Assembly (NCBI GenBank): GCA_036785375.1
Contig: JAWMAR010000578.1
Coordinates: 1,054,001 to 1,114,978, forward strand
DNA length: 60,978 bases
Source: Leucoraja ocellata
Taxonomy: Eukaryota
Direction of reading: 5' to 3'
This document shows positions 1 to 27,120 of the stretch, in pieces. The translations under genes and the position numbers were made by a program. How positions within the stretch are numbered: position 1 is the stretch's first letter; each line of letters opens with the position of its first letter. Under the pieces are notes generated by a model that saw only the letters and a program-made list of their open reading frames with translations, was not told where the DNA came from and did no database searches.

Positions 1-1190
1 AATCCTCGCATCTCATCAAAGTTAGCCTTTCTCCAATCCAAAATCTCAACCCTAGGTCCAGTTCTGACCCTCTCCATAATGATATTGAAACTAATGGTAT
101 TGTGATCACTGGACCCGAAGTGCTCCCCAACGCATACCTCCGCCATCTGTCCCGTCTCATTTCCTAACAGGAGGTCCAGCACTGCCCCTCCTCTAGTAGG
201 TACCTCTATGTATTGCTGCAAAAAACTATCCTGCACACATTTTACAAACGCCAAACCATCCAGCCCATTTACAGAATGTGTTTCCCAGTCTATGTGTGGA
301 AAGTTGAAATCTCCCACAATCACTACCTTGTGCTTATTACTAATATCTGCTATCTCCTTACATATTTGCTCTTCCAATTCTCGTTCCCCATTTGGTGGTC
401 TATAATACACCCCTATAAGTGTTGCTACACCTTTCCCACTTCTCAGTTCCACCCAAATAGCCTCCCTAGATGAGCCCTCCAATCTATCCTGCCAAAGCAC
501 AGCTGTAATATCTTCCCTGACTAGCAATGCAACACCTCCACCTCTTGCCCCTCCAATTCTATCACACCTGAAGCAACGAAATCCTGGAATATTTAGTTTC
601 CAATCACAGCCCTCCTGCAACCATGTTTCACTGATCGCCACAACATCATACTTCCATGTGTCTATCCAGACTCTAAGCTCATCCACCTTTCTTACAATGC
701 TCCTAGCATTAAAATATGCACATTTAAGAAACCCCCCGTCTCTTATTCTCTGGTTATTTCTTTTTTTTTATTTCTCCTCTTGTGTCCGAGTGCTTCTCTT
801 TTCTGCTTCCTGCCTCCCATTCTGTCTACTCGCTTTCTCTATTTGAGTCCCTCGCCCCAACCATTCTAGTTTAAAGTCTCCCCAGTAGCCTTTGCAAATT
901 TCCCCGCCAGGATATTGGTCCCCCTCGGGTTCAAGTGAAACCCATCCTTTCTGTACAGGTCCCACCTTCCCCAAAAGAAGTCCCAATGATCCAGAAACTT
1001 GAATCCCTGCCCTGTGCACCAGTGTTTCAGCCATGCATTTATCCTCCACCTCGCTCCATTCCTACTCTCACTGTCGCGTGGCACAGGCAGTAATCCTGAG
1101 ATTGTTACCTTTTTGGTCCTTTTCCTTAACTCTCCTCCCAGCTCCCTAAAATCCTCCCTTTAGGACCTCTTCCCTTTTTTTACGTCTTGT
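1..1190 (-). mobile_element. CR1 LINE fragment: ORF1 esterase (SGNH-type) end and ORF2 APE endonuclease start
   Basis: ORF 866-1084 (WGRWDLYRKDGFHLNPRGTNILAGKF) is typical of CR1 ORF1. Endonuclease motifs LDLLLGNE and DHNTISF read on the minus strand. Confidence 0.85.
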
Positions 1191-1694
1191 CTTATTTAGG
1201 GGAAGATGTAGATTTGGCTTTTTTTCCATTTCGTTTTATTACCCTATCTGGATGCGAAGCTTTGTAAACTTGTTAATTCAACCCTCTACTGTTTACAGTA
1301 ATGACAACATGTTCGATGACAATAAAGTGCTCTGGGACCAAAAGTAGATTTAAAACACGTGTTCCCTCGTGTTTCACTAGTTGTTTTCTTTGTTAAGCGG
1401 CTCATCTCTTCTTGCAAGCATATTAACCGACAAATTATTTCAGATTTGTTTTCAGCTGAAATTACTTCAGTGTTTCGAAATGCCCCTCTCTTGTCGTAAC
1501 CGATAATACAGGGGAATGTCAGGATATTTATCCAATTATCAATTTTATAATGATTGCCAATGAAACAATAAGTGGTTTGTCCTTCTACGTTTCAATAGAA
1601 AGATTGGCAACTTTAAAACTTGTTTTGAATTGATATCAAGATAATTGTTTCGTATTTCTTTTTTCCAGAATGTACACGGCGCGCAATTACCAAA

Positions 1695-1910
1695 CATAAA
1701 ACTCGCAGAGCAAATATTTTGGTATCAGAAACAGGGTCTCAAATAAATTACTCAAATTAGACTTCTTCCACTTCAGCGTCAAATTGGATACCGCAAGCAG
1801 TTTGCAACTTCAGATCATCGTACTCTTTGACCACAACGAGTTTCCATGATGTCACCAGCAGATTCAAGGTGCATTATTCTTATGGGTTATTTACTCTTAG
1901 TTCGAGCTAT
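1695..1910. promoter_or_regulatory. Conserved upstream element, fourth copy (gene presumably left of the window)
   Basis: ACCACA 1830-1835, TTTCCA 1841-1846, then TGATGTCA. Shares the caaataaatt(a/g)ctcaaat block with the other copies. Confidence 0.5.
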
Positions 1911-2329
1911 GAATGTATTTATCGGGTTCATTGGCTATATCATCTTTTTATAGAGAAGTTGCAAATGTGCATACTCTGGCTACAGCGAATTACATACAGA
2001 AAGCTAAAGTTTGAAGAAAGGTCTCGACTCGAAACGTCACCTACACATCTGCGATGCTGCCTGATCCACAGAGTTACTCCAGCACTGTTAGTCTTTTTAA
2101 AAATTTCCTTCCAGAGGACGTACCCTTTCCAATCGCAATGGAACAAGAAGCAAAAAAAGACATTTACAATGGACGAGAATAAATTGAAAAGAAAGCTGAC
2201 AAGCACGCACGCATGCACAGATTTAGATACACACATACACACATTTATTTAAACGCATACGTTTTACTGCGATGTTTTCCCAGAAAACACCAACTTTCAT
2301 TGACACAACATCTTCAAACCATTTAAAGA

Positions 2330-5090
2330 AAATACACAGAACGTGCTTTACGGGAAGATAAAGGTCTTGCAAAGTGAGTTTAGGGAGTTCCACAAATGTT
2401 TAAAAAAATTACTTCATGAGTCCTATCTCAGGATTCATGCGTGGGATCTGTATAGGAAACATTGATTGATCTAAACTGGAAGGGAACGAAGATCAGAGAA
2501 GAGAGGATTATTCAAGCTACTTAGAAGTGTTTAAACGAACTTGGGAAGGGAGAAGGTCGGTGGAAGCATGGAACCAGTGCAACAACTGGGGTGAAATTTG
2601 TGCAGGACAAATCAAGCAAGTCCCAAGGGCAGAGTAGAGGGTGGCAGGTTCGCAAGCCGAGGAGGCTTAGCAGGCCCAACAGCATTTACTTTAATGCAAG
2701 GTGTCTCACTGGCAAGTCAGTTGACATTAGAGCATGTGTCAGAACTTGGAATGATGACTTTACTGCAATCACATAGTTGAGGGAAGAGGGAAGGACAAGA
2801 CTGGCAACTTAATGTTCCAAGTTATACAACCTTCAGGTGTGAGAAAGAGTACTGCAGAAGAGCAGGGGGGTATGTTTGCATTGCCTGTTAGGCAGAAAAT
2901 AATTAGCCCTTTGGAAGGGTATCCAGGAGGGTTCATCCAATGAGGCCTTATGGATCGAATTTGGGAAAAAGAGAGGAACGATCACTTTGCCAAAGTTATA
3001 AGATAGACTTCCCAGTAGTCAGGAAAAATGACTGGAACAGGTATGTAAGCAAGCCGCCAAAGTTTGTTATAGTGGGCATTTTTATATGCTCAATCTTAAC
3101 TGGATTGTCCTGATTGTCACGGGTTTAGATGGAGAGAAATTTGTTAAGTTTGTACCACACATTTTGAGAGCCAATACATCATTGGTCCTGTCAGATATGA
3201 GTCAGTACGATGCTCGACATTATCAGGAAAGCACTGGGTAGGTGGTGGAAATGTTGGTTTAGCGAGACTTTTTGAACAGTGAAAATTCAGAAATGTTCAA
3301 GTTATTTATGCAAAGGGATCAGGTTGTTCCTTAAATTTGAGAAAGGCTTGTTTCAATAACGTAACTAGAAATTGATGAATGTAGACTGGGCATAGATGCT
3401 TGTGGGTAAAACTGACAAGTGGAAGTCTTTTAAGGGACAATTAACCAGACTTCAGATCCAGCAAGTTCCAATTAAGGTGAAAGGAAAGATGGCAAGGCAG
3501 GAGATACCTGTGGCCCAGGCAGAGGTTTCAGTACCTTCATTCTTCAAAGGTGACATGCCAAAACATGGAAGGATAACTACTATTCTTTCACTTAAGAAGA
3601 GCACCAGAGATATGCCAAGTAATTACAACTGTTGTGCCTTACTTCATTAATGAGGGAAATTAATGAGGAAGGTCTTAAGAGATATGATTTATGTAAATTT
3701 GATAATTCGGGTATTTATTAGGGATAGTCAGTAGATCTTTGTGCGGGGGTAAATCCTGCCTCACTAATTTGATTGAGCTTTATGAGGCAAGTACTAAACA
3801 GATTCATCAAGGCGGGATTGTAGGCATTTTTTTGACGTTTGACATGGTTTCACATCGTAGGCTGGTTCAGAAGATTAAGACATACTGGACACACCTTACA
3901 TCGTTGGTTAATTGCATCTAAAATTGGCATGGTGAAAGTAGACAGTGGTAGTGGTGGAAAGCAATTAATTCCACACAACCATGGCCTTCAGTGTGGAAAT
4001 AAAACTGTCTCTCATTTCTCCTTTCAATTTATCCTGTGTCAGCTTAAACAATGCTATTTAATTCCAGACTCTCCCGGTGAAGGAAAATGACTGACTATTG
4101 TCCTATTTATGCTTCTGATCAATTTATAAATCTTGATGTGTTGACGCTCAGTCTCGTACACTTCAGTGAGAATAATCCAAGTCAACACAATTTCTTCTTC
4201 TAAATACAGCTTACCATTCTAGACCTGATCCTGGTGAAACTCTTCTGCAAACTCTCTATGGCTAGTGACGTTGAGGTACAGAACTGAAGATGTGTCTGAT
4301 TGTTAGCAAATTCACCTAGTGGTCATACCCAAGAATGTCAATTGTAGTGAAATATTAGGGATTGTAACATCTAGTCCTACTAATCAATCAATATTTTCCT
4401 GTGGTGTGGTGATCAGAACTGTACATTGTACACCAAAGGCGCACATAAACAGCACATGCTTACTCACATGTTTCAGTGCTTTATGCTCCCACTGTCTTCC
4501 AGGCAAAACCTATATGCATTTTATGTGTTTCCTTCCATGTTCTTGTTCATGACACTCGGTGGAGCATATTTATTACTTACATGGCTACATTTAGCTCTAA
4601 AAAATACTCAAGAAGCACAACATTATTCAGGATAAAGAAACCCTTCACATTGGTACAGATTCACCAACATAAAATAAATAGTCTCCATTACTGTTGCATC
4701 ATAGCTGCAGTGGACCACATTGATGGAAATATATTGCAATTCCTTCAGCTACTTCCTATCGAGGAGTGGTGATCTTTCACTTGAAGGGGAAATCATGGAA
4801 GATGACCTACCAATTTTACATGGTAATTAAATAATTCCTCAGTCACAGTTGCTTAGTTAGGTTGCAGTTGCTCAAGACATTAGTGAGGCCACATTTGGAA
4901 TATTGTCTTCAGTTTTCGTCATCTTATTGTAGGGAATGTTATTGGTGCAGAGACGATTTACGAGGATGTAGCCAGAAGTAGACGGCGGAGGTTGAGCAGG
5001 TTAGGACTTTATTCCTTGGAGCGCAGGAGAATAAGGAGTGATCTTATACAGATATATGATCATGAAGGGAATAGATAGGGTAAACGTCTA
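2330..5090 (+). mobile_element. Old, fragmented CR1 LINE (ORF1 end, EN and RT remnants)
   Basis: IYFNAR..., GKSCLTNLIELY..., and a degenerate 3' region at 4850-5090. Many stops, interrupted by other sequence. Boundaries approximate. Confidence 0.65.
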
Positions 5091-6094
5091 CTCTGTCAAA
5101 CCTTAAAACTTCTATTAGGCCACTCAATTACATTGTTTATCCATACAGACAAGCCCGAATCAATGTTTTATTTCTGGATATGAATTGCCTCATTTTGTAC
5201 ACTGTACTGCAGTTCAATCCACTTGCCTTATTATTTTCTGCTTTTCAATTCAGTCTGAGTAAAAATGAACGGTGCCATGTTCTTTTTATATGGCCCCGTT
5301 AATCTCTATTCATAGATTTGTGTATTAATGCTCCCAAACACCTTACTCATCCAATAACTGGGTATTATTTGGTGTTTATCTTTCCAGGAATGTGGGCAAC
5401 ATCAACAAATCCAGCATTTATTGTCCGTCACCCGTTGCCCTGAGAAGATGGACATTATCCATAGGCTTGAATTACTGCATTCCTTCATGTGAATGAACTC
5501 CCCCAATGCAATTGGGAAGGAGTCATTTCAAATTGCCTGAGCAATTTATGTATTCTTTAAAAAAGTACCGCCTCATACCTATCTAAATCAAAAACTAATT
5601 AGCTATTAAATGGTCATTCTTGTAAGTGTATTTAATTCCTGAATTTTACTTCATTTACCTTTAGATTTAAACAAATCTGACATTGAGAACTACAAACATT
5701 TTGTTGCATTTGATTATGGCTCATTTATGCTTTCAATTTCCATCCAATTTCATTTAATTTGCAGTTGAAAAGGTCTACATCAAGGGATTCTATTACAAAA
5801 GTGATGCCAATGCATAACATGGTTAAGTTACAACTTATCTGTTACATCATTGTCATAAATTCAGACAAACTGATAGATCATATTTAATAAAGACTCAATA
5901 TCTATAAAATCGATTAATTGCTCAAAACTATATTCTAAGAATTAATTTCTTGCCGATATCATTTTGTGGAAGAAATTTAAAATTTAGAATGAGTTAAATC
6001 TGGCATAAAATTAGATCTAATAAACACCAGTGAATAATAGATTACACCCTTTGAACTTGAAAAAAATTTCAAGGCATAAGTCTTTCCCCTCAAG

Positions 6095-6712
6095 ATCATA
6101 GAGTATAGAAGTTGGGATGTAATGTTAAAATTGTACAAGGCATTGGTGAGGCCAATTCTGGAGTCTGGTGTACAATTTTGGTCGCCTAATTATAGGAAGG
6201 ATGTCAACAAGATAGAGACGACAGAGGAGATTTACTAGAATGTTGCCTGGGTTTCAGCAACTAAGTTACAGAGAAAGGTTGAACAAGTTAGGGCTTTATT
6301 CTTTGGAGCGCAGAAGGTTAAGGGGGGACTTGATAGAGGTCTTTGAAATGATGAGAGGGATAGACAGAGTTGACGTGGATAAGCTTTTCCCACTGAGAGC
6401 AGGGAAGATTCAAACAAGGGGACATGACTTGAGAATTAAGGGACAGAAGTTTAGGGGTAACATGAGGGGGAACTTCTTTACTCAGAGAGTGGTGGCTGTG
6501 TGGAATGAGCTTCCAGTGAAGGTGGTGGAGGCAGGTTCGTTTTTATCATTTAAAAATAAATTGGATAGTTATATGGATGGGAAAGGAATGGAGGGTTATG
6601 GTCTGAGCGCAGGTATATGGGACTAGGGGAGAATGCGTGTTCAGCCCGGACTAGAAGGGTCGAGATGGCCTGTTTCAGTGCTGTAATTGTTATATGGTTA
6701 TATGGTTATATA
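6095..6712 (+). mobile_element. 5'-truncated CR1 LINE 3' end
   Basis: LGLYSLERRRLRGDLIEVF...FFTQRVVAVWNELP, with a TTATATGG repeated tail. Confidence 0.9.
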
Positions 6713-6848
6713 TAGACAGTTTATATTTTCTACTCTCGTAGTTTATTTCATGCCACATTTGAAGTTTATGCCAGTTTTGCATTTATATATCTTTCTGGAA
6801 GAAAGGGACTGAAAAAATATACAAATTCAAATAGATGCAAACTAATAG

Positions 6849-7228
6849 CTTACAGAATTCTTAAGAGGTTGGACAGGCTAGATGCAGGAAGATTGTTCTC
6901 GATGTTGGGGAAGTCCAGAACAAGAGGTCACAGTTTAAGAATAAGGGGGAAATCTTTTAGGACCGAGATGAGAAAAACATTTTTCACACAGAGTGGTGAA
7001 TCTCTGGAATTCTCTGCCACAGAAGGTATTTGAGGCCAGTTCATTGGGTATATTTAAGAGGGAGTTAGATGCGGCCCTTGTGGCTAAAGGGATCAGGGGG
7101 TATGGAGAGAAGGCAGGTACAGGATACTGAGTTGGATGATCAGTCATGATCATATTGAATGGCAGTGCAGGCTGGAAGGGCCGAATGGCCTACTCCTGCA
7201 CCTATTTTCTATGTTTCTATGTTTCTAA
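6849..7228 (+). mobile_element. CR1 (HER1-like) 3' end
   Basis: Nearly identical to the 3' end of the 10064-11735 element, with a (TTTCTATG)n tail. Confidence 0.9.
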
Positions 7229-7909
7229 TAGTTACCAGTATCTTTATATCAGATCTAATTTCGCATATTAATAAAAAAATTAATTGACAACGATTTGTCC
7301 GGAAATAACTTGTCCAATATATGTTTTGAGCAGTGGATTAAGTTTATAACCTTTGCTTCCTTTGTGAAATATTCTGCACTAATTAATTTGGATTCAACAT
7401 TTGTGGTATCATTTGGATTCAACATTTGTGGTTATCAGGCAGGCGGGTTGCAGACATCGGAGTCATGGTGACTTAACTCATCAGCCTCAGGCAGGCTGAG
7501 GTTATGGAATGATGGGAGAGCGCAATATTCAGGAGCTGGAGGCACCGCCCAGATGGAAGAAGGACATGATGCTAAATTGCAGAACGGATTGACAAAGTCT
7601 GTAGTACTTCGCTGAAACCACAAGGTGGAGCCCGCCTCTCGCGCAGTGTAAAGAGGCCCTCTATGGCAGATGGAAGCGATTTTCTTTCTGATGAAGGATA
7701 CAGAGGAGCTGGACATCAATTCGGAATTGGGATCTGGCCTTTCAACAACAACACCAGGATGCATATTTTTATTCAGGTCTTTGTAAAATCAGGACTCGTC
7801 TCCCTGAACAAAGCTGGAATAACTCGGCCAAATGCAGCTTTTAAGACTGAGACGGTGGTCCGGTTTTGAGTAAATAGTGCAATTTTCAGTATAATACGCT
7901 TAGATTCAG

Positions 7910-10900
7910 TCAGCCGTTTCTAGCACGATCTGTTAAAGAAACAAAACATTTAAAGTTTATATCAACTGAATTATTGTGATAAGTCCTCTAGCGTTCTTAC
8001 CCGTTTCTATCACATACCCGGAGGTCTTTCCATGTTCCTCTCTGTTCATTGTTTGCTCTGATGTCTCGACCAATCGGTCAACCTTTACCACGGAGCCTAG
8101 GCAGGAAGACAAATTAATTGGGTACTATAGTGCAGATTTGGCGATCGTGAGTTATTTTGAATGTTGACATATTTTCTTACACCACTCTTATTATGAGCCG
8201 ACAAGACATCTAACGGGGTTTAAGAGGGAACTGCAGATGCTGGAGAATCGAAGGTTACACAAAAAAGCTGGAGAAACTCAGCGGGTGCAGCAGCATCTAT
8301 GGAGCGAAGGAAATAGGCAACGTTTCGGGCCGAAGAAGGGTTTCGGCCCGAAACGTTGCCTATTTCCTTCGCTCCATAGATGCTGCTGCACCCGCTGAAG
8401 ACATCTAACGGGCACCGATTCCCTATTGCCCAATTTGTACTCCCGACTAAAATCGATTTGTCGCCTTTGTCTCCAGATGGGTTCGAAGTCAAGGCGAGAG
8501 AGTCACCACTAAATGATACTTTGAATAATTATCTGAACATCAGTTTCGAAGACATTCCCAACGCTTCATCGGTCAGGGATCAGCCGCGGCTGGGCTCCAT
8601 CCTTCAGAAGCAAAACAATGGGATGGGGACCAATTCGGGTAGATGCAGAAATCACAACATTCAGCGGAGTCCCGACTGACCACAAAAATGAAAGAAGGAA
8701 CGGCAATTTTCAAGCCGACAACTTTTAAATCAAAGGTTTGGGAAATAATCACTTTATCCAACATGCATTGGCCCAAGATAAACAGTTGCACAAAGCTGTA
8801 TCTTGAGGAAGGAAACCGCTCCAAGTTGCGACATCTAAATTACAACCGCTCTCATCTTCCAATTCTGCATGTGGCGTTTCATCATTGGAACAATTATTTT
8901 ATAACAGTTCGATTAGAAGACGGTATTGTATTCCTTGATATTAACGATGATTAACAATTTATTTTTCTAAGCTCTTTCAATGCCCTCTTTTGATTTTGGA
9001 TTTTTACAAGTGAATTTGGAACACTGGTGATAGCGGAGACTTGATGGAATTGTTGTCCTCTGTGAGTCTGGGGATGGAGAACTGATATCATTCTGTACCG
9101 TTTGGGGATCACGATCTTGTTATTAACAATGTGGCCAAATAGCATCAATTCACTTAGCGTCATTTGATTCTCCGCAGCACCATTTTACAGGGAATTTGAA
9201 GATGAACTCTAGAATTAAGCTTCATTCACCTTTGGCAGAGCTTGATCCAAAAACAATTCTCAAAGTAGCCAACACCAGTAGAATGATCAATGTACCTCCT
9301 ACATTGCGAAGGACAAGGACAACGCTGGCCGAACCTGCAGACGTAAAAAGTAATTGAGCAATAAGACAATTATCACAAGTGAATGAACAAACTATAGAAT
9401 TGTATTTGTGTAAAGAGCTTTATCAAGTGTCACTGTACTACAAAAAATATCCAAATAAAATAGCAATATTAGGCAAATGGACACTGTACAAAATAAACGG
9501 GAGATCTTGCTTCCAATATGAACAATATTGTTATTGCATTATATGTCAACGAGTGATACATTTCCAAGTCAAGCTAGTGTGCAATTTGGAAGGCAGCCTG
9601 CAGGCCGTGGTGTTCACATACACCTGCTGCCCTGGTCCTTGTTGGTGATCCAACATGTCCAGAAATCTATAAATGTCAATCCTCACTTTTCAAACATCTG
9701 CAACGCGTCGAGGTAGGGAATTACAAAGATTCACTCATCTCTGAGAAGAGTCATACAGTCACAGAGTGATACAGTGTGGAAACAGGCCCTTCGGCCCAAC
9801 TCGCCTACACCGGCCAACAATGTCCCTGCTAACCTAGTCCCACTTGCCTGTGCTTGGTCCATAACCCTCCAAACCTTTCCTATCCATGTACCTGTCCAAC
9901 TGTTTCCGAAACGATGGGATAGTCCCAGCCTCAACCACCTCCTCTGACAGCTTGTTACATACACCCTCCACCCTCTGTGTGAAAATGTTACCCCTCGGAT
10001 TCTTATTAAATCTTTTCCCCTTCACCTTGAACCTATGTCCTCTGGTCCTCGATTCCCCTACTTAGAAACATAGAAACATAGAAATTAGGTGCAGGAGTAG
10101 GCCATTCGGCCCTTCGAGCCTGCACCGCCATTCAATATGATCATGGCTGATCATCCAACTCAGTATCCCGTACCTGCCTTCTCTCCATACCCCCTGATCC
10201 CCTTAGCCACAAGGGCCACATCTAACTCCCTCTTAAATATAGCCAATGAAGTGGCCTCAACTACCCTCTGTGGCAGAGAGTTCCAGAGATTCACCACTCT
10301 CTGCGTGAAAAAAGTTCTTCTCATCTCGGTTTTAAAGGATTTCCCCTTTATCCTTAAGCTGTGACCCCTTGTCCTGGACTTCCCTAACATCGGGAACAAT
10401 CTTCCTGCATCTAGCCTGTCCAACCCCTTAAGAATTTTGTAAGTTTCTATAAGATCCCCTCTCAATCTTCTAAATTCTAGAGAGTATAAACCAAGTCTAT
10501 CCAGTCTTTCTTCATAAGACAGTCCTGACATCCCAGGAATCAGTCTGGTGAACCGTCTCTGCACTCCCTCTATGGCAATAATGTCCTTCCTCAGATTTGG
10601 AGACCAAAACTGTACGCAATACTCCAGGTGTGGTCTCACCAAGACCCTGTACAACTGCAGTAGAACCTCTCTGCTCCTATACTCAAATCCTTTTGCAATG
10701 AAAGCTAACATACCATTCGCTTTCTTTACTGCCTGCTGCACCTGCATGCCTACCTTCAATGACTGGTGTACCATGACACCCAGGTCTCGCTGCATCTCCC
10801 CCTTTCCGAATCGGCCACCATTTAGATAATAGTCTGCTTTCCTGTTTTTGCCACCAAAATGGATAACCTCACACTTATCCACATTATACTGCATCTGCCA

Positions 10901-13900
10901 AACATTTGCCCACTCACCCAGCCTATCCAAGTCACCCTGCAGTCTCCTAGCATCCTCCTCACAGCTAACACTGCCCCCCAGCTTAGTGTCATCCGCAAAC
11001 TTGGAGATATTGCCTTCAATTCCCTCATCCAGATCATTAATATATATTGTAAATAGCTGGGGTCCCAGTACTGAGCCTTGGGGTACCCCACTAGTCACTG
11101 CCTGCCATTGTGAAAAGGACCCGTTTACTCCTACTCTTTGCTTCCTGTTTGCCAGCCAGTTCTCTATCCACATCAATACTGAACCCCCAATGCCTTGTGC
11201 TTTAAGTTTGTATACTAATTTTTTATGTGGGACCTTGTCGAAAGCCTTCTGGAAGTCCAGATACACCACATCCACTGGTTCTCCCCTATCCACGCTACTA
11301 GTTACATCCTCGAAAAATTCTATAAGATTCGTCAGACATGATTTACCTTTCGTAAATCCATGCTGACTTTGTCCAATGATTTCACCACTTTCCAAATGTG
11401 CTGCTATCCCATCTTTAATAACTGACTCTAGCAGTTTCCCCACTACCGATGTTAGACTAACTGGTCTGTAATTCCCCATTTTCTCTCTCCCTCTCTTCTT
11501 AAAAAGTGGGGTTACGTTTGCTACCCGCCAATCTTCAGGAACTACTCCAGAATCTAAAGAGTTTTGAAAGATTATTACTAATGCATCCACTATTTCTGGA
11601 GCTACTTCCTTAAGTACTCTGGGATGCAGCCTATCTGGCCCTGGGGATTTATCGGCCTTTAATCCATTCAATTTACCCAACACCACTTCCCGGCTAACCT
11701 GGATTTCACTCAATTCCTCCAACTCCTTTGACCCGCGGTAGATGCACAGATTCTACTCTGGGTAGAATCTGTGCATCTACCCGATCTATTCCCCTCATAA
11801 TTGTGTACACTTCTATAAGATCTCCCCTCATCCTCCAACGCTCCATGGAATAGAGACCCAGCCTACTTAACGTCTCCCTATAGCTCACACACTCTCTAGA
11901 CCTGGCAACATCATCGTAAATCTTTTCTGAACCATTTCAAGATTGACAATATCTTTCCTATAACATGGTGCCCAGAACTGAACACTATATTCTAAATGTG
12001 GTCTCACCAACGTCTTATACCACTGCAACATGACCTACCAACGTCTATACTCAATACTCTGAATGATGAAGGCCAAAGTGCCAAAAGCCGTTTTGACCAC
12101 CTGCGATTCGACCTTCAAGGAACCATGCACTTGTACTCCTAGACCCCTCTGCTCTACACCACTAGCATTTACTGTTTAGGTCCTGCCCTTGTTCGACTTC
12201 CCAAAATGCAACACCTTAAACTTCTCTGTATTAAATTCCATCAACCATTCCTCTGCCCACGTGGCCAAGCGATCCAGATCCTGCTGCAATCGTTCATAAC
12301 CATCTTCACTATCTGCAAAACCACTAACTTTTGTATCATCAGCAATCTTGCTAATCTTGCCCTGTTTGTTTTCATCCAAATCATTGATGTAGATGCCAAA
12401 CAGTAACGGGCCCAGCACCGAACCCTGTGGCACACCACTAGTCACTGGCCTCCATTCTGAGAAGCAATCTTCCACTAACATTCTATTTTCTTCCATGGAG
12501 CTAATTTACTATCCATTCAGCTATCTCTCCTTAGATCCCACGAGATCTAACCTTCCAAAACAGCCAACCATGCGGCACCTTGTCGAATGCCTTATTAAAA
12601 TCCATGCACACAACATCTACCCCTCTGCCATCATCAACCTTTTTGCCCACGTTTTCAAAAACAATCAATCAGATTGTGAGACACGACGTCCCACGTACAA
12701 AACCATGCTGACTGTCCCTAATCAGCCCATGCCCATCCAAATGCATGTATAACCTATCCCTCAGAATACTCCACAGTAACTTATCAACTACAAATGTTAA
12801 GCTCTCCAGCCTATAGTTCCCAGCATTTTCCCTGCAGTCCTTCTTGAAAAGAGGCACAACATTTGCCACCCACCAATCCTCTGGCACCTCTCCTGTATTT
12901 AAGGACGACATACATTTAATCCAGGGCCTCCGCAATTTCCTCCCTTGTTTCCCGCAATGTCCTCTGATATATCCGACCAGGCCCCAGAGATTTGACTACC
13001 TTCAAACACGACAGTACCTTTAGTACTTCCTCGACAGTACTTCCTCGATGCTCTCATGACACTTCCAGTAACTGCTCCAATTTCCTCCATCCTACTGTTT
13101 TCTCCTTGGTAAATGCAGAGGAGAAATACTCTTTGAGGACCTTACCCATCTCCTGTGGCTCCACGCAGAGGTGACCGCTTTTATTCCTGAGAGGTCCCAC
13201 TTTCTCTCTGGTTATCCTTTCCCCCCTTATGTTTTTACAAAATCTTTTCGGAATGTCTTTTATGGTACCCGCCAGAGCTATCTCCTGGCCAATTTTTGCC
13301 CTTCTGATCTCCTTTTTTAGTTTGCTCCTTATTTCCCAAAACTCCTCCAGTGATGCACTTATCCCAACTGCCTTTACCTGTCCCATGCATCCTTCTTGTT
13401 TTTGACTAACGTCTCAATTTCCCTCGTCAGCCAAGCTTCTTCACGTTTGCCTGCTTTGCCTTTCACTCTAACGGAGACGTACACACCCGGAGCTCTCTAC
13501 AGCATACGTTTAAAACATCCCACTTGGCCGATGTTCCTTCCCCCTCAAATAACCTGCCCCAGTCAAGTTGAGCTAGACCTTCTCTCATACCCTCAAAATA
13601 GGGAAATATCTCAGCATTGCAAAGTAATTTCCCGACTATATATAAAGAACGTGTACCTCTATCCCCATCTCACTGATTGTGTCTTTTTGATTTTTTTTGT
13701 TTGCTAACACCTCTGACAGCCTTGAAGGTTTAGCCACGTCACAGACACTATAAATATTGAAGATGCAGATATAATTTAGAAAACAGATGAGAGCATATGA
13801 TACGTCAGTTTGCCCGAACTCCCGCGGTGAATAAACACGGTCCACATTCAGCCCGTCTAGTCGTGTTTGAGCTGTATCCAACAATATTTCTAAATCGGAT

Positions 13901-16900
13901 CGGAGGTCTCCCTCTGTTCCCAGTTCTGTTTGCCAGTCTTACCTGGCTTGACGGTGTAGTCGACTCTGGCCGGGACCGCAAGGGAGACATGTGACACTAG
14001 GCAGGTGTAAATATCAACGCGCCAGGTAGGCTTCGTTACTTGGAGAAAGCTGGAAGCCACATACAACTCCTCCACGCTACTGGTGTTCACACGTTCTTCT
14101 CCGGTGGAAATTGTTACACCATTTCTTTGCCAGGATATTTTCACTTCCTTCGGGGAAAACGCAGCCGTTTTACACACAAGTCTGGGCGGCGAACTGCCAT
14201 TAACTTGGCTAATGCTCAGGGGAGTTGGCGGAGCTGTAACAGAAGAAAACATATGTTGCATATTTTCTTTCCAATTCAACGATAACATTCTAGTTTGCCT
14301 CGTCACACCGCGACCTTGCACTCCCACCATCAGATCGGTTATCGGTACAATCGCTTTTGCACCCACTGATTTGTCATTGTTTTAGATTTGACAGTGAAAT
14401 ATATCCAAGCAATACATAAGGAATCCGAGGTTTGGATGTAGGTAGTATGTGGGCTTCTGAACAATCGCCAATGTTCTGAAGTGCCAAATCAGTAGCGTGG
14501 AGGGGGGTGTATCATCGCTGGCAACAAAATTTTATGTTCAGTTCAAAAATGACTGTTTCTATGAGATTTTGGTGTAAAGAATGATACGTGTAGAGTGGAA
14601 TATCACAGAGATACACAGCACAGCACAGCACAGAGCAGCGCAGATTGCGTTATTAAACCTCCATCTCTACTTATTCATTTTTCATCTCCTGTCAACTTTC
14701 CTCTTCACTCCTCACCACGACCAATCAACCGGGACAATTTACAGAGACTAGTTTTCCTACCAACCTGCAGATCTGTGGCACGCGGAATAAACCGGAGCAC
14801 CGGAGGAACGTCTATGCGTTGAAGGGGACAACTATATATGGACGCACGCAGGATCTGGGTTGAAGGTGGGTCGCTGAAATTGTGGGCAGCGCTAACCAAT
14901 GTAGCGCTGTATATATCCAGATGTCACCAATATCAATAATCAAGAGGAAGGCCGTAGTTGCATAGATGAAAGCTTGGGCCACACAATTGTTTAATACCTG
15001 GGATGGAGGGCTCAAGTGATACAGCTTTTGGCCCGGGACGTTTCTCCACAACGCTAACTGAACAATTTGAGCATGATAGAGTTATACTAATAATTATTAA
15101 GAAGGAAATGCAGATGTCTGGAGAAGGATCTCGACCCATTCCTTCTCTCCAGTGATGCTGCCTGTCCCGTTAAGTTACTCCAGCTTTTTGTGTCTATTTA
15201 TTGATAATTAGTATCGCCGTGCAAATATTAGACACTTCTTCAATAATTACAATACGCGAATGGGAAATCCAAATTAGACTACGTCTCTTCTACAATTTTG
15301 CCATTTTCCAAATGTACTCGGTTTGTTGAAGACGTTTGGTCTGAATAAGATTTCACTTATATCAGCACGGAGTGGGTAATTTGCGAACGATGATCTACCT
15401 CCGTCGGATCTACAATCAGTAGGTAGTTAGTAGGAGGCCTCTTGTTAAATCGCTGTACGAGTTGATGACTACGAGTTTAATAAGTTTTAAATATTTTTAC
15501 ATTCCGTTTCTTTAGTAACAGGTTGTTGGATCGGTTTCTTTATTGAACTCGGAGGAGACCTCGATGCTTATTCTCAGCCTCGGCGAGTGCATCATCAGCT
15601 AAAACGTAAAATTAATATGTGGCACGAACACAGATCTATTTAGATAGAATGAATAACGTGGAGAGACTGATTCTTGTGGGAAACGTGGTTGAGTCATGTA
15701 AGAATGTAATTGTAAGGACGGGAGCTCAGGCGTTTGCCCCAATGCCGTTAAATCTTACTCGTATTTTATAAAGGTTAAGGGTTTAATGAGAATCCTCGGA
15801 GTGAGACGGTGATATTCTGTCCCTGGAGTAAGAATCGAGCAAATCAAACCTCTCAACGGTTTATAGGATTCATCTGTATAATAACCACGGTGGTTTGATC
15901 CGGGGTTCAGCTTCGTTTACAGCCGACGAATAAGAGTAGAATATTTAAGGCCGAGGCCGCTCCGTTGTTCAATTCAATCGTGGGTGGTTTGTGCGTCAGG
16001 TCTCTGTGTCACAAACCCTGTTGTCACATACCCCACGATACCTAATCTAAATGAATATTCTAACATCCCAATCTCGAGAGATCGATTTATTTTCGTGTTT
16101 CCAGACTTTAAGTGATTAAATGATTACAGATTTCGGAGAATCTGAATCGTGGGCAATAACGCCAAAGTGCACAGCGCGAATCTGCAGGAGAGCAATGGAA
16201 AATGTCTGGAGAAGTACGATATGAGGAAAAGGACATTTTCGCTCTACACAGATGCTGGCCCACTTACGGATTATTTAAATATATCAGATTTGGAACGGTT
16301 TGTTTTTATAGTATAAATCTTATCGAGTTTTTGCCGAGTTATAAAATGTCATGTTATTCATATCAGCGAGCTTTACTTGTACCCCGGGAAGCTTAAAATG
16401 TCTCCCTTACAGGGCACTTACCGAACACGGTGAGCCTTGAGCCAGGTCCATCTCCGATAGATTGCTGCTGTTGTTTCAATTTACAATAATAAACTCCGGA
16501 GTCCGCGATTTTCGTATTCAGGAGAATGAAATCCGCACTGCCCTTTCTGATAGAAAATTGTTTTCTGCTGTCTGGTTCTATAAATGTCTTCTCGCCCCAT
16601 CTCCACCAGTAAACATCAGGAGTAACTTGTTGTATTGAGAATGTGCAGAACATGGACGCATTGCCTCCTCTGTGGACGGTCAGGTCTTTAGGGAATTGGT
16701 CCACTTTGGTTGAAGTTACTTCGAAGGCTGCCAGAAATAAAACAAGAATACTGAAAACAGCTGGCCATCCGGACAAGCAAAATGAACAAAGAGTTGAAAA
16801 ATTCAAAATAAACTAGAATCGGACATAAACGAATTAAGAAGCACTGTAACTAAATTCGTGCTTGGTAACCAACATAGAATATTCTAAGGAGATACAAGAA

Positions 16901-17185
16901 ATGCACCGGCTGGTTTACAAAAAAAGACACCGAGTGTTGGAATAACTCAGCGGCCAGGAGTCTTCTTTAGATTCTGAAGTAGTTTCGACCCGAAACGTCA
17001 CCTATCCACGTTCTCCTAAGATGCTGTCTGACCCACGGAATTACTCCAGAACGTTGTGTCTTTTTTTTTTAAATAGAATATTATAAAACATGACATGGGA
17101 TTCGGAAACCCCACATGTATCTAAACGTACCGTGCCAAACTGTAGCCAGAAGAGTCATGTATCGAACTGATGCTCCAAACGACAT
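7910..17185 (-). CDS. Gene C: VJ-C1 Ig-superfamily receptor with Arg-containing TM and short non-ITIM tail (putative activating paralogue), 6 coding exons, 290 aa
   Basis: Exons: leader 17131-17185, V 16422-16727, C1 13943-14233, TM 9230-9334, cyt1 8001-8096, terminal 7910-7929 (DRARNG*). All junctions are phase 1 AG/GT, total 873 nt. AATAAA on the minus strand at 7768-7773. Confidence 0.8.
8218..8398. mobile_element. Penelope-derived fold-back insertion with 15-bp target-site duplication
   Basis: Perfect ~57-bp inverted repeat (8278-8334 / 8342-8398). AAGACATCTAACGGG occurs at 8203-8217 and 8398-8412. Confidence 0.75.
9230..9334 (-). CDS. Gene C transmembrane exon with intramembrane Arg
   Basis: GSASVVLVLRNVGGTLIILLVLATLRIVFGSSSAK, bounded by ctgcag| and G|gtgaat. 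Shares the VGG motif and the later Arg with the A and B TMs. Confidence 0.8.
9750..13565 (-). mobile_element. Older CR1 LINE, split by the 10064-11735 insertion
   Basis: RT fragments at 11706-11888, 12176-12496, 12669-12935 and 13054-13386. Its 3' end is at 9750-10062. Confidence 0.85.
10064..11735 (-). mobile_element. Young 5'-truncated CR1 LINE with an uninterrupted 520-aa RT ORF, nested in an older CR1
   Basis: ORF 10160-11722 contains SGVPQGSVLGP and SKFADDTKL, followed by a (TTTCTATG)n tail. Confidence 0.95.
13943..14233 (-). CDS. Gene C Ig C1-set exon
   Basis: LVCKTAAFSPKEVKISW...IYTCLVSHVSL, bounded by ttacag| and |gtaag. Confidence 0.93.
16422..16727 (-). CDS. Gene C Ig V-type (VJ-joined) exon
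   Basis: SMFCTF..VYWWRWG..DSGVYYC..GDGPGSRLTVF, bounded by ggcag| and G|gtaagt. Confidence 0.93.
17131..17185 (-). CDS. Gene C leader exon (MSFGASVRYMTLLATVWH)
   Basis: 55 nt, donor G|gtacgt, homologous to leaders A and B. Confidence 0.78.
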
Positions 17186-23510: not shown

Positions 23511-23779
23511 TTGGCTTGTCGATGTAGCAGAAACCATACGACACAAGACAGGTGTAGTCATCGTTATCCCCGGCAGGCGGCGTTATTTCCAAATAGCTGC
23601 AAACATAAAAAGGTCCGGCCGTGCTTTCACAGGGTGTTTTTTTTCCGGTCAGAACCTCCATCTCATTTATTCGCCATGCAATTTCAAAGCTCTCTGGTTA
23701 AAGGGCAGACGTTTTACACACGAGGTTACGAGGAGGAGAAATCCTTCAACCGGAACAAATTTTAAGGAAGTTGGTGGAG
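23511..23779 (-). pseudogene. Orphan degenerate C1 exon of the same receptor family
   Basis: tttcag|(A)PPTSLKFVPVEG, then a frameshift, then LVCKTSAL*PESFEIAW...YTCLVSY. In-frame TAA at 23698-23700, a C-terminal deletion, and a 269-nt length that is not a multiple of 3. Confidence 0.85.
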
Positions 23780-26035: not shown

Positions 26036-27120
26036 GAAGCGGCGGCGCTGTTGAGCAGCTGCGGCTCGCCTGCAGTCCGTCTGTTTTTACTTTTGTTTGT
26101 TGTTTTTTTGTTTTGTTTTAGCAAAATTTTATTTTATTAGATTGTGTTATGGGGGGGGGGGGACATATTTTTTGTCTCTTCCTTCGGGGGAATGCGACTT
26201 TTTCTTGTCATATCACCCTTCTCTGCCTCCGTCTGCGCTGAGGCCTAATGGCGAAGCTGGCGGTCTCCAACCTGCGACCGACCTCGAGGCTCCGGAAGCA
26301 GAGCCAGCCAGGACTTACAACGCGAGGTTGGCCGACTTCGGGGCTGTGGCGGCAGCGGCCCAACTCGCTGATGCGGCGTTCCAGCTTTCGGCAGCTGGCC
26401 GGAGCTGAGGCTGCGGGTCTCGGATCCGAGGCAGCGGGACTCGGAGCTGATGGAGCGGTGGCCCGACTCGCTGAGGCAGCGGGACTCGGAGCTGATGGAG
26501 CGGTGGCCCGACTCGCTGAGGCAGCGGGACTCGGAGCTGATACAGCGGTGGCCCGACTCGCTGAGGCAGCGGGACTCGGAGCTGATACAGCGGTGGCCCG
26601 ACTCGCTGAGGCAGCAGGACTCGGAGCGGAGGCAGCGGGACTCGGAGCGGAGGCAGCGGGACTCGGAGCTGAGGCAGCGGGACTCGGAGCTGAGGCAGAG
26701 GCAGCGGCACTTGGGGCTGAGGCAGCGGTGGCCCGACTCGCTGAGGCGGCGTTCCAGCTTTCTGCAGCGGCCCGTCTCGGAGCTGAGGCTGTGGCCGGCC
26801 GACTTGGAGCGGAGATGGCGTTCCGGCTTTCAGCAGCAGCGACATCACCACGGAGGTCCGCTGGACTGGAGGGCGGCATCTTCGGCCTGGATCGCCTCAA
26901 CACAGAGGGAGAACAAGGAGGGAAGAGACAGAGACTAAGACTTTTGCCTCCACCACAGTGAGGAGGTGCTTGGTGAACTCACTGTGGTGGATGTTAATTT
27001 GTGTTTATTGTATGTTTTGTTATTTATTATTATTGTGTATGACTGCAGGCAACGAAATTTCGTTCAGACCGAAAGGTCTGAATGACAATAAAGGAATCAA
27101 ATTCAAATTCAAATTCAAAT
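26036..27120 (+). mobile_element. Non-autonomous retroposon with an internal GC-rich minisatellite and an (AAATTC)n tail
   Basis: Interrupts Penelope sequence and ends gacaataaagg..(caaatt)n. Related in layout to the element at 32310-33080. Confidence 0.6.
26400..26830. repeat. Minisatellite with 45-bp and 21-bp units
   Basis: The unit gactcgctgaggcagcgggactcggagctgat(g/a)(g/c)agcggtggccc is repeated, followed by 21-bp gaggcagcgggactcggagc(g/t) units. Confidence 0.9.

Follow-up and report, generated by a model that had tools for sequence, protein, structure and literature searches.

A probable activating receptor gene beside two ITIM-bearing relatives in a VJ-C1 receptor cluster of Leucoraja ocellata

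The stretch of DNA considered here, which we call the window throughout, comprises 60,978 nucleotides (nt) of Leucoraja ocellata (GenBank assembly GCA_036785375.1, contig JAWMAR010000578.1, positions 1,054,001 to 1,114,978), and it carries three minus-strand genes, A, B and C, of one receptor family in which a variable (V) immunoglobulin (Ig) domain is followed by a C1 domain. All three begin with a leader exon of 55 nt, go on with a V exon of the unsplit VJ type and a single C1 exon, and then have a transmembrane (TM) exon. Our subject is gene C (17185-7910, minus strand), which has an arginine near the start of its TM segment and no immunoreceptor tyrosine-based inhibitory motif (ITIM), and which we think is probably activating, within a chondrichthyan family of SIRP-like VJ-C1 paired receptors. 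Its place in that family follows from its leader, its one VJ-type V domain, its one C1 domain, its TM segment and its high similarity to the other members, for which we drew on 173 related proteins collected by three word-index searches and one profile search (most rows from the latter being unnamed) and cited here by P numbers. The features of gene C are these, in the order in which they would be transcribed:

17185 to 17131, minus strand: exon 1, 55 nt, with the ATG and leader, ending in phase 1 (tblastn of relatives' leaders; as long as the leader exons of A and B; donor in the top 0.2%).
16727 to 16422, minus strand: exon 2, an unsplit VJ-type V domain with Cys46, Cys100 and a GxG J-like motif (Pfam V-set).
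14233 to 13943, minus strand: exon 3, a C1-set domain (Pfam C1-set, 1.6e-13).
13942 to 9335, minus strand: C1-TM intron, 4608 nt, with long interspersed element (LINE) reverse-transcriptase open reading frames (ORFs) at 11752-10160 and 12505-12176 (Pfam RVT_1, 2.7e-33 and 2.4e-11).
9334 to 9230, minus strand: exon 4, TM, containing Arg227 (codon 9308-9306), an Asn directly after it and, at the cytoplasmic end, Arg243 (splice model, hydrophobicity and alignment).
8096 to 8001, minus strand: exon 5, 96 nt, phase 1-1, predicted to be the first of the tail, with one Tyr and an alternative donor at 8018 (rank 1 of 1149).
7929 to 7910, minus strand: exon 6, coding part of the predicted terminal exon, 20 nt, TGA stop (best acceptor in 9170-30).
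7773 to 7768, minus strand: AATAAA polyadenylation-like signal, about 137 nt past the stop (from sequence).

Joined together, the six exons make an intact leader/V/C1/TM/tail ORF of 290 amino acids in which every splice site is AG/GT and all phases are compatible; the exons are read from the DNA itself, and from them we infer the splicing as modelled. The V exon is 64% identical to a Pristis pectinata protein, and the structure model of the domain is an Ig fold with a mean pLDDT of 81. To score splice sites we used a model trained on 15 donors and 14 acceptors (those of A, B and the first three gene C exons), from which the tested exons were excluded. In this model the acceptor at 9334 lies in the top 0.4% of 3668 AGs, and exon 9334-9230 ranks first of 20 hydrophobic phase-1 candidates drawn from the 984 AGs downstream of the gene C C1 exon; as a control, in A and in B the same scan puts the true TM exon at the top, their own sites having been in the training set. 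Downstream of the TM exon, 8096-8001 ranks first among 1149 open phase-1 acceptor/donor pairs, while within 9 kb no acceptor outscores 7929 and no donor 8001. An earlier reading of this DNA, made by a model from the letters alone (the sequence-only reading), had proposed tail exons of 96 and 20 nt, and we find them as described, ending in TGA. It had also called the C1-TM intron a CR1-filled one of 4.6 kb, of which the length and the reverse-transcriptase ORFs stand, the Pfam match being to RVT_1 and not to CR1 as such. Intron 4 holds two curiosities of its own: a plus-strand stretch at 8477-8571 or 8477-8638 that looks like an exon in having a good acceptor and, within an open frame, a Tyr motif, and that has no Pfam match and scores no better than chance pairs; and, at 8278-8398, a 121-nt near-perfect inverted repeat, 94% self-complementary, built from a short repeat family present many times in the window.

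The TM exon (9334-9230, minus strand, 105 nt, AG/GT, phase 1-1) translates as SASVVLVLRNVGGTLIILLVLATLRIVFGSSSAK, exactly as the sequence-only reading had it, with Arg227 of the precursor encoded by CGC at 9308-9306 and with no Lys anywhere in the hydrophobic stretch. At the matching place gene A reads IVYAVGG and gene B LGCVVGG; the proposal that Arg stands where A has Tyr and B has Cys holds in one of two alignments, the other moving it one column earlier. Indeed, there are two registers in which Arg227 can be read, on the family's recurrent Arg column or on a neighbouring conserved Cys column. Profile scoring favours the Arg column, marginally (shuffle p 0.03-0.04 in two of five profiles); one MAFFT run agrees and the other sets the residue on the Cys column, as do the best single-sequence matches. 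As for depth, the best Kyte-Doolittle window spans residues 222-242 and puts Arg227 at position 6, within the range of 4-7 seen in 13 of 15 Arg-bearing relatives, and the five hydrophobic residues directly N-terminal of it would favour burial in the membrane.

Beyond the membrane, the predicted tail is short and carries one Tyr (GYVIE), and it contains no ITIM, no immunoreceptor tyrosine-based switch motif (ITSM) and no ITAM (immunoreceptor tyrosine-based activation motif); the claimed lack of ITIM and ITSM is borne out, that of ITIM under every tail choice tested. A short ITIM-less tail likewise results if the TM donor is read through or the donor at 8018 is used instead, and the absence of ITIMs from the predicted protein is independent of the exact tail chosen. 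The two neighbours are quite different:

53303 to 46490, minus strand: gene A, inhibitory-type, 7 exons, uncharged TM, 3 ITIM-like motifs (tblastn, exon assembly, ITIM profile).
40122 to 33467, minus strand: gene B, inhibitory-type, 7 exons, uncharged TM, 3 ITIM-like motifs (tblastn, exon assembly, ITIM profile).

The tails of A and B each span three exons (44, 111 and 138 nt) with three ITIM-like motifs per gene, and a profile built from 28 ITIM-bearing tails of relatives recovers all four of their ITIM exons at 27-50 bits; across positions 1-13900 the same profile detects no ITIM-exon homologue, its best score being 3.9 bits. The last exon of A and of B lies no more than about 4 kb from the TM exon, and 9.2 kb of the window follow the TM exon of gene C. 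That the gene C tail is unrelated to those of A and B holds in the sense that no relationship is detectable (p 0.26 and 0.10 against shuffles), and the tail exon phases differ as well (1-1 and 1-stop in gene C against 1-0, 0-0 and 0-stop in A and B). Compared with 53 tails (A, B and 51 relatives), it gave a family-wise p of 0.15, and a likeness to P0085 was set aside as not significant on that value. The ORFs at 7435-7788, 7576-7869, 8380-8679 and 8643-8954 returned no Pfam match worth keeping; the minus-strand ORF 7788-7435, which has Tyr motifs, was rejected as a tail because it requires a phase-0 donor, and none was found.

What makes a lone arginine and a missing motif worth discussing is the pattern across the family. 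In our main count of 67 rows (64 database proteins plus A, B and C, up to 460 amino acids long, with V, C1 and TM present and four odd proteins excluded), two or more ITIM-like motifs occur in none of the 16 members with an N-terminal TM Arg and in 25 of the 51 without. An alternative selection of 73 rows from the 173 proteins plus A, B and C (up to 520 amino acids, a C1 motif and a TM window above 1.8) gives 0/16 against 30/57, with a Fisher p of 7.7e-5 that ignores kinship. When kinship is considered, on a quick ectodomain tree that is not optimal, nine independent pairs give a median sign-test p of 0.008, and the Arg state changes at least 12 times. The residue sits in one common column in 12 of the 15 other Arg members, whose named carriers include the catshark proteins P0012 and P0015 and the sevengill protein P0031, and there are Arg/ITIM sister pairs (P0042/P0044, P0053/P0032 and P0047/P0112) resembling classic paired receptors. 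Judged from these proteins, the N-terminal TM Arg is a real marker of an ITIM-less class within the family, and this family-wide exclusion is the best support for an activating reading of gene C.

The same collection contains a distinct and conserved Arg-type TM that ends in an Asp-His pair (P0015, P0031, P0034, P0039, P0051, P0096 and P0102), is joined to different ectodomain clades and has catshark and sevengill shark as its named carriers; in P0082 the Arg of this type is replaced by Gln. In the type as a whole, the Arg and the acidic residue are spaced in a way that may resemble mammalian receptors coupled to FcRgamma; the type, which ends in ...IVDH, is absent from the window. Two of the Scyliorhinus canicula proteins, P0012 and P0015, are 82% identical overall and near-identical in their ectodomains, and they carry two TM types, both with Arg, a pattern that suggests exon shuffling or gene conversion of ectodomains.

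Phylogenetically, gene C falls within a 26-row clade (100/100 support) and at the base of a 21-row clade (98/98) whose named members are rays. Joining it to an Arg-rich shark group is not rejected, the approximately unbiased test value (p-AU) being 0.175, or 0.61 in the suboptimal quick tree, and its Arg may thus have arisen either independently or together with theirs; a single clade of all 16 Arg members is rejected (p-AU 6e-5), bearing in mind that ectodomain trees need not mirror TM history. Gene C matches A and B at 53/101 and 53/94 residues in V and at 51/96 and 54/96 in C1 (about 52-56%), roughly the distance that separates A from B, and its closest relative over V and C1 reaches 58% identity, with none closer among the relatives. 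An inhibitory twin closely sharing its ectodomain was found neither in the window nor among the relatives. The description of gene C as the 'partner' of A and B therefore goes too far, as it is a cluster neighbour and not a matched twin. The dN/dS of its V and C1 exons against A and B is about 0.4-0.5, which on these alignments is a sign of past constraint and not of current function.

Elsewhere in the cluster, for which the nearest named proteins are those of Pristis, Hemitrygon, Narcine, Mobula and Hypanus, there is one further family fragment, for which no V, TM or tail exon was found:

23795 to 23520, minus strand: orphan broken C1 exon between B and C, with a frameshift near 23745 and an in-frame stop near 23700 (tblastn).

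The V exon of gene B (39852-39568) is four codons shorter than those of A and C in the loop before the GxG motif that resembles complementarity-determining region 3, and it has the weakest acceptor of the cluster. At 26200-26980 both strands of a GC-rich tandem repeat have long open frames. No further gene was recognised in the window, and with it no marker for linkage to the major histocompatibility complex or to the antigen-receptor loci, or for synteny with tetrapod SIRP.

How might gene C work? Its product would be a type I receptor with a leader, one non-rearranging VJ domain, one C1 domain, a TM segment and a short tail, and without any built-in signalling motif. Lying near the outer leaflet, Arg227 would pair with the acidic residue pair of an ITAM-bearing adaptor dimer like those of CD3zeta or FcRgamma, the cell would then be activated when the V domain bound its ligand, and the neighbours A and B would inhibit through their ITIMs; we infer the depth of the arginine, the binding and identity of the adaptor and activation itself. 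The rule on which the sequence-only reading relied, that an N-terminal TM Arg goes with FcRgamma and a central Lys with DAP12, is confirmed in the account of Feng et al. 2006 (PMC1440944), where FcRgamma partners that use a basic residue have an Arg in the TM's N-terminal part and type I DAP12 partners a more central Lys. The arginines of NKp30 and NKp46 are reported to pair with CD3zeta or FcRgamma (PMC6514059, PMC2195691). On the choice between the two for gene C, a single group reports in two papers that cartilaginous fish have no FcRgamma gene (PMC4016189, PMC5742104), and cd247 is described as expressed in bamboo shark T cells (PMC11372145). On these reports CD3zeta is at least as likely an adaptor for gene C as FcRgamma. 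A shark FcRgamma has reportedly been described since; our literature search retrieved no such account.

A number of results, including those just mentioned on FcRgamma and those on which the alternatives below draw, weigh against an activating role, and they should be set out frankly. Gene C is the sole Arg bearer among the 21 rows of its clade. Five Arg rows in the family count retain one ITIM-like match, some of the rows with neither Arg nor ITIM are probably truncated automatic gene models, and the ITIM pattern is a loose one. Neither a transcript nor an orthologue with the gene C TM or tail turned up in three word-index searches or among the best 150 representatives. The TM donor is only in the top 4.5% of the splice model, and seven plus-strand pairs (positions 1-17000, three phases) equal the score of the 96-nt exon; since chance pairs score as high, the exact tail exons are a best guess, and unproven. 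The earlier claim that gene C signals through an ITAM adaptor stands in part: the lack of ITIMs and the family's exclusion of Arg and ITIM speak for it, while the reported absence of FcRgamma and an ambiguous Arg depth weaken it.

That ambiguity bears on the likeliest rival, which we nevertheless consider unlikely, namely that gene C encodes an adaptor-independent, non-signalling receptor, a decoy or adhesion molecule in the manner of SIRPgamma (a precedent described in PMC12975943), whose helix starts after the Arg-Asn pair, with Arg227 as an interface residue and an inert tail. Our position-weighted insertion score, custom-made with Hessa values, does favour windows of 21 residues at 228-248 and of 19 at 229-247, leaving Arg227 just outside, as it leaves the arginine at the surface in 2 of 15 Arg relatives, so that the TM prediction suggested as a check of the sequence-only reading gave position 6 by one scale and position 0 by the other. 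Moreover, hydrophobic residues extend beyond Arg243, and the two proteins nearest in V, P0001 and P0003, are short-tailed and lack the Arg. The five hydrophobic residues before Arg227, however, would on this model lie exposed beside the C1 domain, and Arg227 stands at or adjoining the family's recurrent Arg column. Furthermore, the functional Arg of FcalphaRI is itself at TM position 3 only (PMC1440944), so that either depth of Arg227 would be compatible with adaptor binding.

Quite improbable, in our opinion, is that relaxed selection has left gene C a copy in decay or one that is weakly expressed, with an incidental arginine (for example, from Cys by a change of one base), even if its history offers several grounds for thinking so. 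In the C1 tree its branch measures 0.69 against a median of 0.09, and the pace of change of this exon (14233-13943) is about seven times that of the median C1 in the 26-row tree, the V exon being less exceptional. The TM exon has diverged beyond recognition: compared as DNA with the TM exons of A and B it shows no significant similarity (18% and 66% of random windows are as good), it is not among the best 14 matches of the family TM hidden Markov model, and it scores below zero on every TM profile. BLASTP against the most similar-looking Arg relative, P0066, gave an E value of 0.65, and a comparison of the TM exon with the PDB found nothing. In addition, the C1-TM intron is filled with retroelements, a broken C1 exon adjoins the gene, and the best single-sequence matches put the Arg on the Cys column. 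On the other side, the six exons have no stop or frameshift, strong splice sites and a polyadenylation signal, and dN/dS is well below 1 in V and C1, which speaks for past constraint only. An origin of the arginine from Cys by a single transition was considered in its own right and is unproven, because TM homology to A and B is not significant; the profiles, besides, prefer the adjacent Arg column.

Very improbable, finally, is a wrong exon model, with gene C using another TM or tail (a secreted V-C1 form, or ITIM exons past the left window end), for which the missing transcript, the moderate TM donor, the chance pairs of equal score and the several relatives whose database models have no TM can be cited, and against which stand the finding, in 13.9 kb, of neither a competing TM exon nor an ITIM exon and the 9.2 kb available after the TM exon, compared with the roughly 4 kb within which A and B reach their last exon.

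If an activating gene C is the probable reading, what would it tell us? Activating receptors with a charged TM next to ITIM-bearing relatives are familiar from textbooks, and the mechanism is not new; what is useful is that statistics can show this arrangement in a VJ-C1 family of cartilaginous fish to which databases give inconsistent labels. A keyword search across literature listings and abstract openings retrieved no description of this V-C1 family, and Kinlein et al. 2021, on shark NCR3, may cover related genes. With gene C one could test directly which ITAM adaptor serves innate receptors in the oldest jawed vertebrates, a group in which it is doubtful whether FcRgamma is present. Were FcRgamma truly missing from the lineage, the Arg forms, gene C included, would signal through CD3zeta, and this leads to a speculative idea to which we attach rather low probability: a large, non-rearranging VJ-C1 family whose activating forms were switched on and off many times, mostly by way of an Arg at one TM column, and which signals through CD3zeta. 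A VJ-C1-TM chain with an Arg that docks on CD3zeta has the T-cell receptor (TCR) alpha chain's layout. The family would then be a living model of a germline receptor wired to CD3zeta before RAG rearrangement.

It is helpful to place gene C among systems that are better known, beginning with its own relatives. The chondrichthyan V-C1-TM receptors that NCBI labels SIRP-like, NCR3LG1-like or TCR-beta-like (in Pristis, Hemitrygon, Hypanus, Mobula, Narcine, Scyliorhinus, Heptranchias, Heterodontus and Callorhinchus), names that are automatic and do not imply orthology, have the domain order of gene C and include both ITIM-bearing and Arg-bearing members. None of them significantly matches the gene C TM or tail, and the commoner shark Arg type ends in ...IVDH, a motif that the window lacks.

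The mammalian SIRPs share the paired logic of the cluster, having a joined-VJ receptor domain (as described in PMC11599192) and both ITIM-bearing and adaptor-coupled members. They differ in that SIRPs are described with a V and two C1 domains (PMC12975943), where A, B and C have one C1 each, and in that SIRPbeta uses DAP12 (PMC12975943), which prefers a central Lys (PMC1440944), whereas gene C has an N-terminal Arg. SIRPalpha (2wng) scores 58 bits against the V-C1 profile, and Ig light chains score as well. Like gene C, NKp30, NKp46 and FcalphaRI have a TM Arg and no ITAM of their own, and theirs is reported to couple to CD3zeta/FcRgamma (PMC6514059, PMC2195691, PMC1440944). NKp30, however, is described as a single V domain with no C1 (PMC2195691), and NKp46 as two Ig domains related to KIR/LILR (PMC6514059), unlike the V-C1 arrangement of gene C. 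None of the three is among the best 60 PDB profile matches or the Foldseek matches listed. The domains of FcalphaRI are of the C2 type. With a C1-set exon at 14233-13943, gene C is not an NKp30-type protein, and the proposed 'NKp30-like' character applies to the arginine alone; the likeness to all three receptors would be one of mechanism and not of membership. When PDB profiles, Foldseek and ESM Atlas were used to decide whether the V domain belongs with NKp30, with SIRP or elsewhere, they gave generic Ig matches only. For the V-C1-TM profile, the best PDB match is shark UrIg2 (9dmx, 97.5 bits, E 7.8e-27), ahead of Ig chains (about 60-70 bits) and SIRPalpha. Shark UrIg and UrIg2 resemble the cluster in their unsplit, non-rearranging VJ exon followed by C1 (PMC12227049, PMC10751288), and they differ from it in that nurse shark UrIg2 is described as having nine C1 domains and linkage to antigen-receptor loci (PMC12227049), whereas the Leucoraja cluster consists of single-C1 genes, two of which, A and B, have ITIM tails.

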